A stretch of 63,035 nt of DNA, counting the filler, from Globobulimina sp. (Eukaryota), in NCBI GenBank assembly GCA_003354225.1. It is 54 parts of 54 records of this genome, joined end to end, with 100 filler letters (N's around TTAATTAATTAA, not from the genome) between each part and the next. Parts side by side here need not be neighbours in the genome. Positions count along the whole stretch, not along the records: positions 19,891 to 20,960 come from PIVH01024343.1; 53 more parts are not named here. One strand, 5' to 3'. The translations under genes were made by a program, and so were the position numbers. This document shows positions 19,791 to 57,195 of the stretch, one piece after another. Each line of letters begins with the position of its first letter. The first letter of the stretch is position 1. The notes under the pieces are model-generated. The model saw only the letters and a program-made list of their open reading frames with translations, searched no databases and had not been told where the DNA came from.

Positions 19791-20087
19791 NNNNNNNNNN
19801 NNNNNNNNNNNNNNNNNNNNNNNNNNNNNNNNNNTTAATTAATTAANNNNNNNNNNNNNNNNNNNNNNNNNNNNNNNNNNNNNNNNNNNNATCCTTAAAT
19901 GTGACTATATGCGATTTATCGTTGTTGGTTGGGATATTATTGGCATTTAGATAGCGATGCGTGTAATTAATAGCTTTTTGCATCATAGGATACATTTTCT
20001 TGGCTATTTCACTGTACATTTTGTTTGGTTGTAATAAGATAAAATCATTGATCGATATTTTGTCATTCATCGTAGAGTAATTATACG

Positions 20088-20330
20088 TTACATGTAATAA
20101 TTAATGATTAAAATGTAATAATTAATATCATCCATCAGTATTTTTGGTTGGATCTTTGCCAGAATGTTATCGGACTTATCGTATAAAATATAATTCTCAT
20201 TTAAATGCATACCGCGGATTGACATAAATACACCATTGCAAACCGGCGGGGATGAAACCCTGTGAAAACAATGAAACCGGCGGGGAATTATTATTGTTGG
20301 TTTGAAGGTCGTTGAGTGAGTTATATTCAT
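20088..20330 (-). CDS. Small ORF (~80 aa) on the 951-bp unit
   Basis: MNITHSTTFKPT...NYYM*; same strand, ends 17 bp before the ATG of the 172-aa ORF. Confidence 0.35.
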   Translation of the reverse strand: MNITHSTTFKPTIIIPRRFHCFHRVSSPPVCNGVFMSIRGMHLNENYILYDKSDNILAKIQPKILMDDINYYILIINYYM

Positions 20331-20502
20331 CAAGCTCCATTTTTTCACTAAGCTGGTTGTGATAGTGGTTGGTGTGGTTAGTGTTGTTTTCGGTATTTAG
20401 GTTTGGGTGATTTTGATGGTATTTTTTTATTTTGTCTAATAATGTGTGGTTTAATGGTTTGCTGATGAGTTTGATTTGTATACCTAGTTTTTTGGTGATG
20501 AA

Positions 20503-20960
20503 CTAATCAACTAATTTATTCTTGATGTTTGTTTGTGTGATAATAAATTGGTTATACTCATACTCATTCATAAAGAGTATACAATTTACATCATCGGCAT
20601 CCTTGCAATAAATCCATATATTTTCTCTTATTGCATAATTTATGAATTTCACAGTCAAAATCTTGCCGTATTTCTTGTTAAATCTTTCAATGATTTTTGT
20701 TTTTGTCAATGCATAGATTGGTTGCCTACATTTGCGGATTCTTATTTTATTGAATTTAATCATTGATATTTGGATGTTTGTTATGATTGGAATGCATTCA
20801 TTGAATTCTGATTGGAATTGTATCAATTTCTGATAATAATAATCCTTAAATGTGACTATATGCGATTTATCGTTGTTGGTTGGGATATTATTGGCATTTA
20901 GATAGCGATGCGTGTAATTAATAGCTTTTTGCATCATAGGATACATTTTCTTGGCTATTT
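20503..20960 (-). CDS. 172-aa ORF spanning the junction (starts ATG 20070, continues 20960 to 20503), C-terminal degenerate RRM-like fold
   Basis: Track ORFs 19843-20070 and 20503-20946 share MYPMMQKAINY...TFKD and fuse on circularisation; KIRIRK...TKTKIIERFNKKYGKILTVKFI...NIWIYCKDADDVNCILFMN resembles RRM topology. Confidence 0.6.
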
Positions 20961-29344: not shown

Positions 29345-29514
29345 TTTGTTGCATCATGTTCCTTTTTTCATGAAACATGGAAAAAGGCGTAAGTCCATGT
29401 CAACCGCTGCAAACGAACCATAAAGACCCAAACAGCCGGCTGATTACCGAAAGGGGGTGATAGTCCGGGATCGATGCTACTGATGAAATTATCTTACTAT
29501 TAACTAAAAATTTT

Positions 29515-29519
29515 GGAGG
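29515..29519 (+). promoter_or_regulatory. Shine-Dalgarno site
   Basis: GGAGG 7 nt upstream of ATG 29527. Confidence 0.85.
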
Positions 29520-29526
29520 AAAAAAG

Positions 29527-30314
29527 ATGACGAAAAAAATATTAGCTATCGCTGTCGTTGCAGTGTGCTTTATTGCATTTGCAATTCCGGCATCAGCACT
29601 TGAAAATGAATTTGGCGGATATTGGCGGACAAGAGCCTACACACAGACTAATTTTACCGGGGAAGATGAGACTGAAACTAACGATGTATCCCAGGTTGAT
29701 ACCCGAACCCGTCTGTACTACACAGCAATCATCAATGACAGCTTGAAACTGGTTAACAAGTTTGAAATGGATGCCACATTTGGTGATGAGAATAGAGGCG
29801 ACATCGGCGCTGACGATGTGAGTATTGAAATTAAAAATACTTATGCAGACTTTACGATTGGCCAGGTAAACACCAAAGTCGGTACACAGGCTTGGAAAAT
29901 TTCACGGGGTTTCCTTTTTGATGATGATTTTTCCGGTCTGGTTATAAAGTATATGGAAGATTCATATGATGTTGAATTTGCATGGGTAAAAGCCTATGAA
30001 GGTGGTATGGGCGGTAAAGACTACAACGATTATGATGTTGATTACTATGTTTTAAACTCTACAATGAAAATGGATGATATTACCCTAAGACCCTATTACT
30101 TCGGCGTTTGGTCAGACGACGTTTCCAATTGGGCAAGAAATCCTATAGGTGGAAGCAGTGATGCTGAAGAGCTTATGTTGCACTTCATAGGTGTTGATGT
30201 GGATTCAAAAATGGATGAGCTCACTGTATTTTTTACCGGTATTTACCAGATCGGTTCTGTTGACTGGCAGGAATCTGCTGGTGGCGGAGATTCCGACATT
30301 GCCGGTTTCTGTGT
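29527..30314 (+). CDS. Bacterial outer-membrane beta-barrel porin, Desulfobacterales-like, partial
   Basis: Sec signal peptide ending ASA; LENEFGGYWRTRAY, VDTRTRLYYTA, LVNKFEMDA, DIGAD, FLFDDDFSG amphipathic strands; SD site; no introns. Taxon is an inference. Confidence 0.8.
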
Positions 30315-33964: not shown

Positions 33965-34642
33965 TCATGAAATAAACCGCAGCGCAACCGACTTATTTGC
34001 ACGAATGGCCGGCCCTGTGTTGTCAACCAATAAATAATCGCGTTTCAATGTTACAAACACATGCTCAGCTACGGCAGGTAGAAAACCAGGATTTCGGTAA
34101 AATAGAAATCTTTGTAAAGTTTCCAATGAATTACCATTCATGACCGCTGGCATGAGGAAAATATAGCTAGCATTTTTGCGAATCGTGCGCATAGAATCAC
34201 CGCCTTTTTGCATGTCTTGTGTTAGAAACCAACATTGAGTGCCCGATCCACTGCCAGCGTGATGACAGAGAACAGTGAACAATCTTTCTATACAATTATC
34301 TTTCAAACCAACTTTGTTAGCCATATCATCAATAATAACAATCTGACTTTCGTCATCTGCCAAAGGTCCTAATTTTGACAAGTTAGCCTCGTTTGGAGCT
34401 TCTTGAAAGAAGCTTACTTCACATTCTGATGATGAAAGTTCATCATAAATATCGCGGTACATTTTCTGCCATGTGTCAAAACATATTATTACACGTTTCA
34501 GTTTAGGTCTGGCAGGGCAAATCGATTTTGACCAATTAAGCAAAGCTTTTTTGACCAGTGTAGATTTACCACTGCAAGATGGCCCGATAACCATCACTGA
34601 ACTAGGGAACGATAAATAGAAGTTGTCAACCTGTTCATACAT
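33965..34642 (-). CDS. Polinton/Maverick (adintovirus-like) A32/FtsK-type DNA-packaging ATPase
   Basis: Walker A GPSCSGKST, Walker B IVIIDD, LFTVLCHH, FLTQD, RTIRKNASY, YLLVD; intronless; AATAAA downstream (33926-33931). Confidence 0.85.
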   Translation of the reverse strand: MYEQVDNFYLSFPSSVMVIGPSCSGKSTLVKKALLNWSKSICPARPKLKRVIICFDTWQKMYRDIYDELSSSECEVSFFQEAPNEANLSKLGPLADDESQIVIIDDMANKVGLKDNCIERLFTVLCHHAGSGSGTQCWFLTQDMQKGGDSMRTIRKNASYIFLMPAVMNGNSLETLQRFLFYRNPGFLPAVAEHVFVTLKRDYLLVDNTGPAIRANKSVALRFIS

Positions 34643-34677
34643 GTTTACAAAACAACAATGAAAAGTTTTCTCCTTTT

Positions 34678-34990
34678 TTATACTTTTCGATCTTGCAACA
34701 TTTGTTTATACTGTTTGCATGTCTGTTTTTCGGCTTTATTTCTCAGTTTACTGCAATCAATCCATGGGCTGTTCAACTTGATCACAGACCCAAAATTTTC
34801 GTTAAACCAATTTAGAACTTGTTGATCAGATAAAATTTGTGTTGTGTTAGGCAATTGTTTCAAAATTGTTTCCATATCCAACCCAGCGCTCAACCAATGA
34901 CCCCAGTACAAACACCACAATCCACACACAGTTGTATACTTTGACTGGATAGCGCGAGGCAAAGTTTTGTAATCACCCCCTGTAACTTCT
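34678..34990 (-). CDS. Adenain-like cysteine protease (Polinton PRO), C-terminal part
   Basis: IQSKYTTVCGLWCLYW matches the Q-x6-CG-x-[YWF]-C catalytic motif; lies 35 bp upstream of the ATPase. Confidence 0.8.
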
Positions 34991-42106: not shown

Positions 42107-43033
42107 AATGCAAAATTTAATATACAACGTACATTACGTGGTCATACTGATAAAATACATGCATTGCGATGGTGTGCAGATAATAATCATTTAGTCTCCG
42201 CCTCCAAAGATGGATCATTAATCGTATGGGACATGGTGAGCTACAGAAAGAAATTAGGTATTCCATTACGAATGGCTTGGGTTATGACTGTGGATTATTC
42301 GCCCGATGGGAATCTGATCGCATCCGCAGGTTTAGATAACCTATGCAGTATATTCAATATTAAAGATAAAGTAGGTTGGGCCTCAGAAATGGTTAATACA
42401 CATCGGGAGTTACAACAACATGAAGGATATATATCTTGCAACAGATTTACGTCAAATCAACATATATTAACTGCATCGGGTGACTCCACCATTGTATTAT
42501 GGGATATTGAATGTCAACAACCCGTTTCCGTATTTTGTGGACATAGTGGCGATGTAGAGAGCGTGGAACATAATACGTCGAGCAATAATACATTTGTTTC
42601 TGGCTCTATTGATACGACTGCCAAGTTATGGGATTATCGACTTTCGTCGCATACCGCGTGTATTAATACATTTTCTGGTCATTTGAGCGATATAAATTGG
42701 ATCAAATGGTTCCCAGATTTTAAATCGTTTGCGACTTGTTCAGATGATGGTACTTGTCGCTTATTTGACATTGCCTCGTATCAGACCTTAAATGTGTACG
42801 GTGATAAGTTAAAGGAAGCAAATGCAGCCACTTGTGTTGATTTTAGCAAATCTGGTAATTATTTAACTGCTGCCTATGATGAAGGTGTTATGTGTCTTGC
42901 ATGGAATACGGTGACTGCTGAGGTGGAAACGGATTTGCCTCACGAAATGCGTGTTTCTGCATTGCAATTTCAACCAAATGGAAATTCCCTTGTTACTGGA
43001 TCTTGGGATAAAAGTTTACGAATTTGGGTGTAA
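42107..43033 (+). CDS. GNB: Heterotrimeric G-protein beta subunit, partial
   Basis: RTLRGHTDKIHA, LVSASKDGSLIVWD, IPLRMAWVMT, AGLDNLCSIF, HEGYISC, TASGDST, SDDGTCRLFD, TGSWDKSLRIW. Confidence 0.95.
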   Translation, partial: NAKFNIQRTLRGHTDKIHALRWCADNNHLVSASKDGSLIVWDMVSYRKKLGIPLRMAWVMTVDYSPDGNLIASAGLDNLCSIFNIKDKVGWASEMVNTHRELQQHEGYISCNRFTSNQHILTASGDSTIVLWDIECQQPVSVFCGHSGDVESVEHNTSSNNTFVSGSIDTTAKLWDYRLSSHTACINTFSGHLSDINWIKWFPDFKSFATCSDDGTCRLFDIASYQTLNVYGDKLKEANAATCVDFSKSGNYLTAAYDEGVMCLAWNTVTAEVETDLPHEMRVSALQFQPNGNSLVTGSWDKSLRIWV

Positions 43034-56127: not shown

Positions 56128-57195
56128 GAATCAGGTTATTGGGCTCCTATTCGTTTGGTTAATACATGTACAAACAATGGACCATGGCAGTTCCAGGTAC
56201 AAGCAAACCCTCAATACTTACAACTGTCAAAGAATTATCTATGTGTCAAACTACGCATTGTGAGAGGAGACGGAACAAACTTGGTTGTTGATCAACCTGC
56301 AGTAGCAGATGCGGCTGCGGTGCCAGGCGATTTTGTGGGACCTATTAACATGATTGGAAAAACTTTGTTCAAGCAAATAAAAGTTTCTTTGAATGGACGT
56401 CAAGCTTTCGACAGTGGGGACAACTACGCGTACCGGGCCTTCCTGGAAACCGAACTAAACTATGGTGAAGCGGCAAAGTCTACTCAATTAACAGCGGCCA
56501 TTTACTCTAAAGATCGTCCAGCCAATCAAGTCGATACAGTCCACAATCAGGGGTTGATGTGGCGAAGGGCCTGGTTCAATGGCAGTCAAGTAGTCGAAGT
56601 AATGGCACCCATCCATTGCGAGTTGTTTCAATCTGAACGATTGCTTTTGGACAATACCGAAGTATACTTGGAACTGCATAGAAACAATGACGCTTTCACC
56701 TTGATGTCTTTTGCCGAAGGTGCCAATTACAAAGTAGAGGTAGTAGATATGGTATGGTCTGTTAGGAAAGTAGAAATACTCAAATCGGTGCAAATGGGGC
56801 TCGAAGCTACTCTACTACGTCATCCTGCCAAGTACCCGATCAGACGTATTCAAGTGACAAAACTACATGTAACTCCTGGACGACGTTCGGTTCCTACAAA
56901 TACTTTGTTTACCGGACAGATCCCTAGACGTTTAGTGCTCGGATTTGTCGATATGGACGCATACTATGGAAACTATCAGAAATCGCCCTTCCGTTTCCAA
57001 AACTATTCGATCAGAAAAATCAAAGTTACAGCAGGTGGACAAGTGTTCCCAAGAGAACCAATAGAAATGGACTTTGTCAACAATCAGTATATGAAACCAT
57101 ACATAAACTTATTTGAAGGTTTGGGACAAGCTAGAGATGATGTCGGAAACGGTATATCGCTATTCGATTTCAAAAACTCTCATTGTCTCTTCATT
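56128..57195 (+). CDS. Polinton/Maverick (adintovirus-like) double-jelly-roll major capsid protein, internal fragment
   Basis: LFKQIKVSLNG, YAYRAFLETELNY, PIHCELFQSERLL, AKYPIRR, LFTGQIPRRLVLGFV, GNYQKSPFRFQNY; intronless, higher GC than neighbours. Confidence 0.9.

Follow-up and report, generated by a model that had tools for sequence, protein, structure and literature searches.

The window analyzed here, 63,035 nt from the Globobulimina sp. assembly GCA_003354225.1, includes a contig at 19891-20960 whose ends close into a unit of 951 bp. The coding content of this unit is very probably a relic of the reverse transcriptase (RT) of a long interspersed nuclear element (LINE), and not a novel pair of genes. 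Judged by colinear homology, its two open reading frames (ORFs), ORF1 and ORF2, and a further frame of 47 aa are frame-shifted pieces of one RT reading frame, which came from a non-long-terminal-repeat (non-LTR) retrotransposon of the type with an apurinic/apyrimidinic endonuclease (APE). In the initial annotation, the element fitted no class and had two ORFs with the same orientation; these ORFs turned out to be broken pieces of one LINE RT frame. The unit as a whole is probably a transposable element (TE) relic that is most likely chromosomal, and not an autonomous replicon.

The closure of the unit was evident from the contig itself. The 119 nt at 19891-20009 were identical to those at 20842-20960 (100% match, spacing 951), as had been reported before. 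Such a terminal overlap was present in 1 of the 54 contigs of the window. The number 119 is a default k of MEGAHIT. The 951-bp unit had a G+C content of 30.5%, and its plus strand contained 42% T and 19% G.

In the linear contig, ORF1 appeared as two pieces of 60 and 151 aa, which overlapped by 39 aa and gave a total of 172 aa. Closing the ends fused them into an intact ORF, as the initial annotation had proposed. It was located on the minus strand, started with ATG, and ran from 20070 to 19891 and then from 20841 to 20506, with a TAG stop at 20505-20503. The second ORF, previously put at about 80 aa, was also found. It was 86 aa long with a GTG start, and 17 nt separated its end from the ATG of ORF1.

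Direct searches with the ORFs of the unit against Pfam and PHROGs gave no significant match. A word-index protein search with ORF1 returned seven candidates, none of which was scored. A phmmer search of 1.84 billion representatives with the 151-aa piece of ORF1, on the other hand, yielded six proteins at E<=1e-3. The best match was P0004 (130 aa, E 9e-30, 52% identity), followed by P0005 (898 aa, E 7e-13), P0006 (413 aa, E 6.3e-9), P0007 (215 aa, E 6.6e-9), P0008 (108 aa, E 9.9e-8) and P0009 (390 aa, E 5.6e-5). The ORF1-like part was internal in P0005 (residues 74-231) and in P0006 (residues 225-359). A profile built from these six relatives added three proteins, to make a total of nine. All nine were singletons in the searches of the 1.84 billion representatives and of the word index of 5.8 billion clusters; in the latter, P0005 retrieved itself only. 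One relative came from EukProt, under the label of the foraminiferan Bolivina argentea, and the others came from ENA or NCBI contigs.

APE-type non-LTR retrotransposons encode an endonuclease, followed by RT and lastly by RNase H. The relatives carried Exo_endo_phos, RVT_1 and, weakly, RNase_H in this same LINE order. P0013 (1234 aa) matched Exo_endo_phos, the APE endonuclease (Pfam E 4.1e-8, 33.7 bits, cutoff 24.5). P0011 matched RVT_1 over residues 108-301 (Pfam E 1.1e-9, 38.7 bits, cutoff 29.6), a range that ended at the LMDD block. P0005 gave a weak RNase_H match (E 0.0095, below the cutoff). Its nearest named ESM-Atlas clusters (score 0.93) had RNase_H in 96% of their members and RVT_1 in 85%, a lead that agreed with the rest. 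The unit itself was connected to these proteins through ORF2, which matched P0011 in BLASTP (E 4e-9) over AKIQPK(I/V)LMDD, within the RVT_1 match of P0011. Sequence searches of PDB with P0005, P0009 and the family profile A1 produced nothing relevant.

Two further features of the relatives were observed. The C-terminal end of P0005 showed, by eye, a Cys/His knuckle, which we take to resemble the tails of LINE ORF2 proteins. P0011 and P0007 were each on a 10708-bp contig, the former ending soon after LMDD and the latter beginning at the ORF1-like part. If they are on one contig, that copy would be split about where the unit is, between ORF2 and ORF1. LINEs that bear RNase H include clades such as I, Tad and Ingi; none of these names is assigned to the unit.

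The positions of the pieces were mapped with a hidden Markov model (HMM) of the nine relatives, run on all three minus-strand frames of the circle, in which stops were written as X. The ORF1 frame gave one continuous match from 20283, via the closing point, to 20506, covering positions 247-520 of the 1187 in the model (iE 1.3e-47). The ORF2 frame was matched at 20183-20097 (iE 5e-6). The same colinear order was obtained by tblastn of the relatives. In ORF2, only the C-terminal 45 aa or so, including AKIQPKILMDD, were homologous to the relatives. In the longer relatives, the stretch just upstream of the ORF1-like part aligned with the C-terminal half of ORF2. By this colinear alignment, ORF1 and ORF2 are neighboring parts of a single ancestral frame.

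The lesions were visible in the same map. The order on the minus strand was the QG block, a frameshift, the xMDD block, a 21-bp tandem duplication with the ORF2 stop, ORF1, a family-specific insert, and the TAG of ORF1 (Table 1). The duplication was one lesion between the ORF2 and ORF1 pieces, and the ORF2 stop came next. After these two, ORF1 lay back in the first frame, that of the QG block. We take the LMDD of ORF2 to be the catalytic block of the RT, and its position inside the RVT_1 match of P0011 agrees with this. NIPTNNDKSH of ORF1 is presumably the block that follows the catalytic motif.

In the relatives, the insert was followed by an 'ILGxxLD' block and a thumb-like region, and in P0005 then by the weak RNase H match. 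The unit had none of these. Like APE-type LINEs, it has the xMDD palm block and the neighboring blocks. It differs from them in holding only about 730 bp of RT, which is broken, and in lacking the endonuclease, the thumb, RNase H and the 3' end. Of the features of an autonomous LINE, it retained only the matched part of the profile, interrupted by a frameshift and stops, and the endonuclease was found in P0013 alone. A broken internal fragment of RT without the downstream blocks could not encode an active enzyme.

Table 1. Features of the contig and of the closed unit (positions in the window; a dot marks features given without strand)
Feature	Position	Strand	Remarks
Whole contig	19891-20960	.	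Non-redundant unit 19891-20841, 951 bp
Terminal overlap, copy 1	19891-20009	.	Inside ORF1
Terminal overlap, copy 2	20842-20960	.	100% identical to copy 1
ORF1, N-terminal 60 aa (P0003)	19891-20070	-	Holds NIPTNNDKSH (19938-19909), the most conserved block of the family
ORF1, C-terminal part with stop	20503-20841	-	Follows the conserved block and precedes the 'ILGxxLD' block of the relatives
ORF2, 86 aa, GTG start	20088-20348	-	Coding 20348 to 20091, stop 20090-20088
14-nt direct repeat, spacing 21	20092-20105 and 20113-20126	.	Doubles 'INYY' just ahead of the ORF2 stop on the minus strand
LMDD (xMDD palm block)	20138-20127	-	ORF2 frame; aligned with LMDD/MMDD of 5 relatives
47-aa frame	20197-20340	-	ORF1 frame; carries SLFSQGFIPAGLQWCIYVNP, SLFSQG at 20274-20257; homologous to the block that precedes xMDD in the relatives
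Frameshift	near 20200-20225	-	Between the 47-aa frame and the ORF2 frame
13-nt exact direct repeat AAACCGGCGGGGA	20240-20252 and 20274-20286	.	Copy 2 straddles the border between segment R and the RT fragment at 20283
Segment R, about 220 bp	20283-20500	.	Unmatched by the LINE profile; open in the ORF1 frame; G+T-rich on the plus strand

The insert is a further difference between the family of the unit and APE-type LINEs. In P0005, P0006, P0007 and P0013, about 110-150 aa were present between the NxxTNxxK and ILGxxLD blocks of the RT. To our knowledge, such an insert is unusual for LINE RTs, in which the two blocks are usually close together. The structure model of the ORF1 piece was of fair quality (pLDDT 74.4, pTM 0.65), and showed a long helix, after which came a beta-alpha-alpha-beta-beta unit. 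With this model, Foldseek had no PDB matches at E<=0.001, and winged-helix proteins (E 0.03-0.3) headed its list. P0006 yielded a poor model (pLDDT 47.5), for which a wide fold search produced only winged-helix-like rows with Z of 6-8, in the range of noise. The models offered, as a lead only, that the insert may be winged-helix-like.

The identity of the ORFs also bore on the proposal, made in the initial annotation, that they were the gene set of a minicircle, a satellite or a virus segment. By homology they were transposon relics. The absence of a Rep, an integrase and a nonanucleotide stem-loop, noted earlier, held up. Scans of the ORFs with Pfam and PHROGs found no Rep, integrase or phage family. 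There were two matches to NANTATTAC, both inside the 21-bp duplication and without flanking stems or an inverted repeat. The universal 12-mer of kinetoplast minicircles was matched in the unit at 10 of 12 positions at best (at 20365). The unit had no blastn match among the PLSDB plasmids. The family alignment gave 54 pattern matches in JGI metagenome contigs and 123 in IMG/VR, of which none was confirmed.

A small replicon, autonomous or dependent on a helper, with the two ORFs as its own genes, would fit the size of the unit, its closure, the co-oriented ORFs and the shared region described below, which recall nanovirus segments or minicircles. ORF1 was also significantly long: its frame spanned 182 codons from stop to stop, and of 1000 dinucleotide-shuffled versions of the circle, one reached 172 codons. 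Such a replicon is nevertheless barely credible, with both ORFs being colinear pieces of a LINE RT cut by frameshifts and stops, no confirmed relatives in IMG/VR and JGI metagenomes, neither Rep nor stem-loop, and the 12-mer no better than stated.

The same conflict was seen in comparisons with known small circles. The single-stranded DNA circles of nanoviruses and their satellites are about 1 kb in size and closed, with an ORF of about 170 aa and a region common between molecules, all as in the unit. The unit differs from them in having no HUH Rep, in the stemless NANTATTAC matches, in ORFs that are RT relics, and in the lack of relatives in IMG/VR. Kinetoplast minicircles and the 'empty' minicircles of dinoflagellates resemble the unit as small circles with a core of about 100-200 bp, a variable part and a strong strand asymmetry. 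It differs from those of kinetoplasts in its imperfect 12-mer and in a variable part that is a LINE fragment, and its own circularity is putative.

The rest of the unit, designated segment R, was of a different nature. No part of R matched the LINE family profile. In local alignments, its translation matched the seven relatives compared no better than shuffles did (z<=1.24 in 7/7). No Pfam match and no tRNA were found in R, and Rfam gave six weak matches on the whole contig, all with E>=1.6 and far below the gathering scores. On folding, the plus strand of R had a z of 0.22 and the minus strand a z of -2.88, at just -15.5 kcal/mol; this minus-strand signal was not taken as an RNA gene. A 25-nt exact word of R had no matches in JGI metagenome contigs or in IMG/VR. 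Two placements of R read by eye, one as an 'LGI' block downstream of ORF1 and the other as sequence that precedes the QG block, were unsupported by the alignments of the relatives and by the family HMM.

The unit was present in one public run (X1), with 81% of the sampled words, and no RNA runs were among the listed public runs holding it. The Logan contigs of two runs from the same sample, X2 and X3, included none on the unit, which is no proof of absence. Logan contigs (k=31) are a separate assembly, possibly of the same reads, and their word depths are not copy numbers, as the tool itself warns. In X1, unit-specific contigs had word depths of 7.4-8.2, and a variant copy had 8.8. The region 20275-20500 was covered by several short contigs at depths of 12.9-59.8, which summed to 60-181 per bin. 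These abundant R contigs differed from our contig at 20334, 20335 and 20391, and continued into unlike sequence at 20283 and at 20499/20501.

These depths showed that R, with these borders, is also present in other, more abundant sequences of X1. The earlier account of the unit, sound in its geometry, had missed these 220 bp or so that are common to more abundant sequences of the source run. The borders of R agreed by two independent lines, namely sharing (20283 and 20499-20501) and LINE homology (20283 and 20506). The abundant copies of R had one main flank on each side. Read by eye from consensus strings of 30 letters, these flanks kept the ORF1 frame open, and the flank past 20500 resembled the end of ORF1 with indels.

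The way in which the unit closes was also examined in the Logan contigs of X1. One contig ran from 20841 directly to 19891. The head-to-tail joining of identical units was therefore seen both in the 119-bp exact overlap and in a Logan contig that went back by 951, and this continuity in two assemblies is an observation, like the identity of the coding part and its lesions. The relatives are colinear with ORF1 across the 119-bp overlap, which falls within that ORF. The overlap therefore marks only an arbitrary place at which the loop was cut, and not a biological junction. The non-native adjacency lies at R. Logan record 1 (19963-20312) crossed the border at 20283, and record 8 (20472-20841) crossed that at 20500 and went on to 19891. 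From 20312 to 20472, shared contigs alone carried the path, and the sole contig at 20391 had a letter other than that in our contig.

We interpreted the unit as follows. It is very probably a dead internal fragment of an APE-type LINE, in which about 730 bp of RT extend from just upstream of the QG block, via xMDD, to the end of the family-specific insert. The remaining 220 bp or so, R, are unrelated or unrecognizable, and also occur in more abundant repeats of the same sample. The original reading frame has been broken by at least one frameshift, by the 21-bp duplication with a stop, and by the stop that ends ORF1. The unit holds nothing that could replicate or move it. The loop would be chromosomal DNA in which the LINE fragment and R stand head to tail, as a tandem duplication or a short TE-derived array generated by unequal exchange or slippage. 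The assembler would then have emitted the head-to-tail repeat as a cycle with a k-sized overlap. Head-to-tail repeats are the usual source of such k-overlap loops in eukaryotic data. We hold this chromosomal arrangement of the loop tentatively, at a little short of an even chance.

Satellites derived from LINE ORF2 provide a precedent. The review PMC9659126 lists PROsat (Phodopus), Pvc20 (Phoca) and the chicken HinfI/CR1 satellite, and there, as in the unit, an internal ORF2 fragment serves as the head-to-tail repeat unit. The present unit differs from them in that it also holds a non-LINE segment, R, and any array that it forms, of whatever copy number, is putative. Its host, to judge from the relative labelled Bolivina argentea, appears to be a protist.

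The shared path through R raised the possibility of an assembly collapse. In this case, a single LINE fragment would be flanked by two almost identical copies of R (R-X-R), or R would be common to paralogous copies of the LINE; short dead-end flanks would have been clipped at low coverage, and the closed loop in the graph would match no molecule. Several versions of R were present in the run, and the passage from 20312 to 20472, available only via shared contigs with the differing letter at 20391, is in keeping with this, as are the surrounding contigs, all of about 1.07 kb, which indicate a fragmented assembly. However, a loop with an overlap of exactly k requires that both flank branches be missing. 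The R of our contig, moreover, differs from the abundant versions at the three positions given above, so a path at k=119 should stay separate. R-X-R is also by itself a partial head-to-tail duplication. We consider a collapse improbable.

The sharing of R and its borders also concerned an extrachromosomal circle. The unit could be a covalently closed DNA of 951 bp, either a one-off extrachromosomal circular DNA from a LINE-bearing locus or a member of a family of circles of about 1 kb. In the latter version, R would be the common core, through which the host or a helper replicates the circle, and the dead LINE piece would be variable junk. The clean closure with a k-sized overlap and no flanks would be explained, as would a region common to more abundant sequences, whose sharp borders coincide with the end of LINE homology. 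The 13-nt exact direct repeat at one border of R and the occurrence of the unit in one public run only point in the same direction. On the other side, the unit has neither a replication protein nor an origin-like stem-loop, and R holds no RNA that is structured or known. The R-sharing contigs, with one main flank per side and the ORF1 frame open by eye, look more as if R were embedded in a longer coding sequence that is repeated than as if it were a replication core. In word depth the unit did not exceed the variant copy, and no second circle was found, with a terminal overlap in only 1 of the 54 contigs. An extrachromosomal circle of either kind is unlikely. It is very unlikely that the unit belongs to a family of self-closing circles of about 1 kb in a foraminifer-like protist, with R as the maintenance core and variable, partly transposon-derived filler, which would constitute a class akin to minicircles but lacking a Rep, an origin with a stem-loop and any known RNA.

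Several points weigh against the chromosomal LINE relic that we prefer. None of the unit's own pieces, P0001-P0003, matched RVT_1 at E<=10, so that the link to RT is transitive, via the relatives. RVT_1 was likewise unmatched in the relatives P0006 and P0009, members of a divergent family, and the pieces themselves are short. In pairwise comparison, ORF1 and the APE-bearing P0013 showed no significant similarity (E 1.5-2.1). ORF1 is overlong for decayed DNA by the shuffling result, which suggested that the copy is young or that ORF1 has somehow been kept. The nature of R is not explained by a LINE relic, and a conserved core with a variable part, the borders of which are those of LINE homology, is also expected of a family of small circles. 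As regards the tandem arrangement, the closure of the loop was clean, and no flank was observed to lead out of the unit. The similar depths of the unit and the variant copy gave no sign of a high copy number, word depths not being copy numbers. The initial annotation had offered an episome or a tandem array; the cycle in the assembly was borne out, and both remain the main topologies.

The rest of the window was also inspected. Its 54 contigs, of 1068-1070 bp each, are sorted by length and joined by spacers of the form N44-TTAATTAATTAA-N44. They are unrelated, and the 'neighboring genes' in the window consequently have no genomic adjacency. No other contig of the window was related to the unit by blastn (next best match 30 nt, E 0.014), and in tblastn of the nine relatives all 12 matches were in the contig of the unit.

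Some of the other contigs had recognizable content. A G-protein beta subunit was found at 42107-43030 (WD40_Gbeta, E 3e-84) and a protein kinase at 1171-2238 (E 6e-36), and there was a weak match to a Gram-negative porin at 29464-30312 (Porin_4, E 4.7e-4, below the cutoff). Eukaryotic genes together with a weak bacterial porin match suggested that the assembly is mixed.

At 56128-57195, on the plus strand, an open frame of 356 aa without a Pfam match filled its contig. Its nearest ESM-Atlas clusters (score 0.98) were named 'Major capsid protein' or F54H12.2-like, with the double-jelly-roll family PF21738 in 16% of members. From this resemblance, the frame may be a capsid gene of a Polinton/Maverick-like element or a virus. 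A 246-aa frame at 33965-34705 on the minus strand held, on visual reading, a P-loop-like GPSCSGKST; Pfam matched nothing in this frame at E<=0.001. It could be a putative packaging-type ATPase that goes with the capsid-like contig.

The contig at 40936-42004 contained short tandem arrays with periods of 14-15 (unit TTTTCACTAAGAAGT, 15 and 24 copies), 26 and 17. A TTTTCACTAAGC-like 12-mer of R (20341-20352) matched the 14-15-nt unit of these arrays many times, which is probably a coincidence.

By its homology, the unit is a repeat unit of transposon origin, from a protist LINE family that has been sampled poorly. In itself it matters little, as one more transposon-derived repeat closed into a loop by a de Bruijn assembler. 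It calls for caution, in that 'circular' short contigs with orphan ORFs may be broken pieces of LINEs. R is a sharply bounded and more abundant repeat, and the finding would become interesting if R were the true core of a circle family. The LINE family itself, barely sampled with nine singletons, one of them labelled as foraminiferan, and with its insert in the RT, has some value for the study of transposons in Rhizaria.

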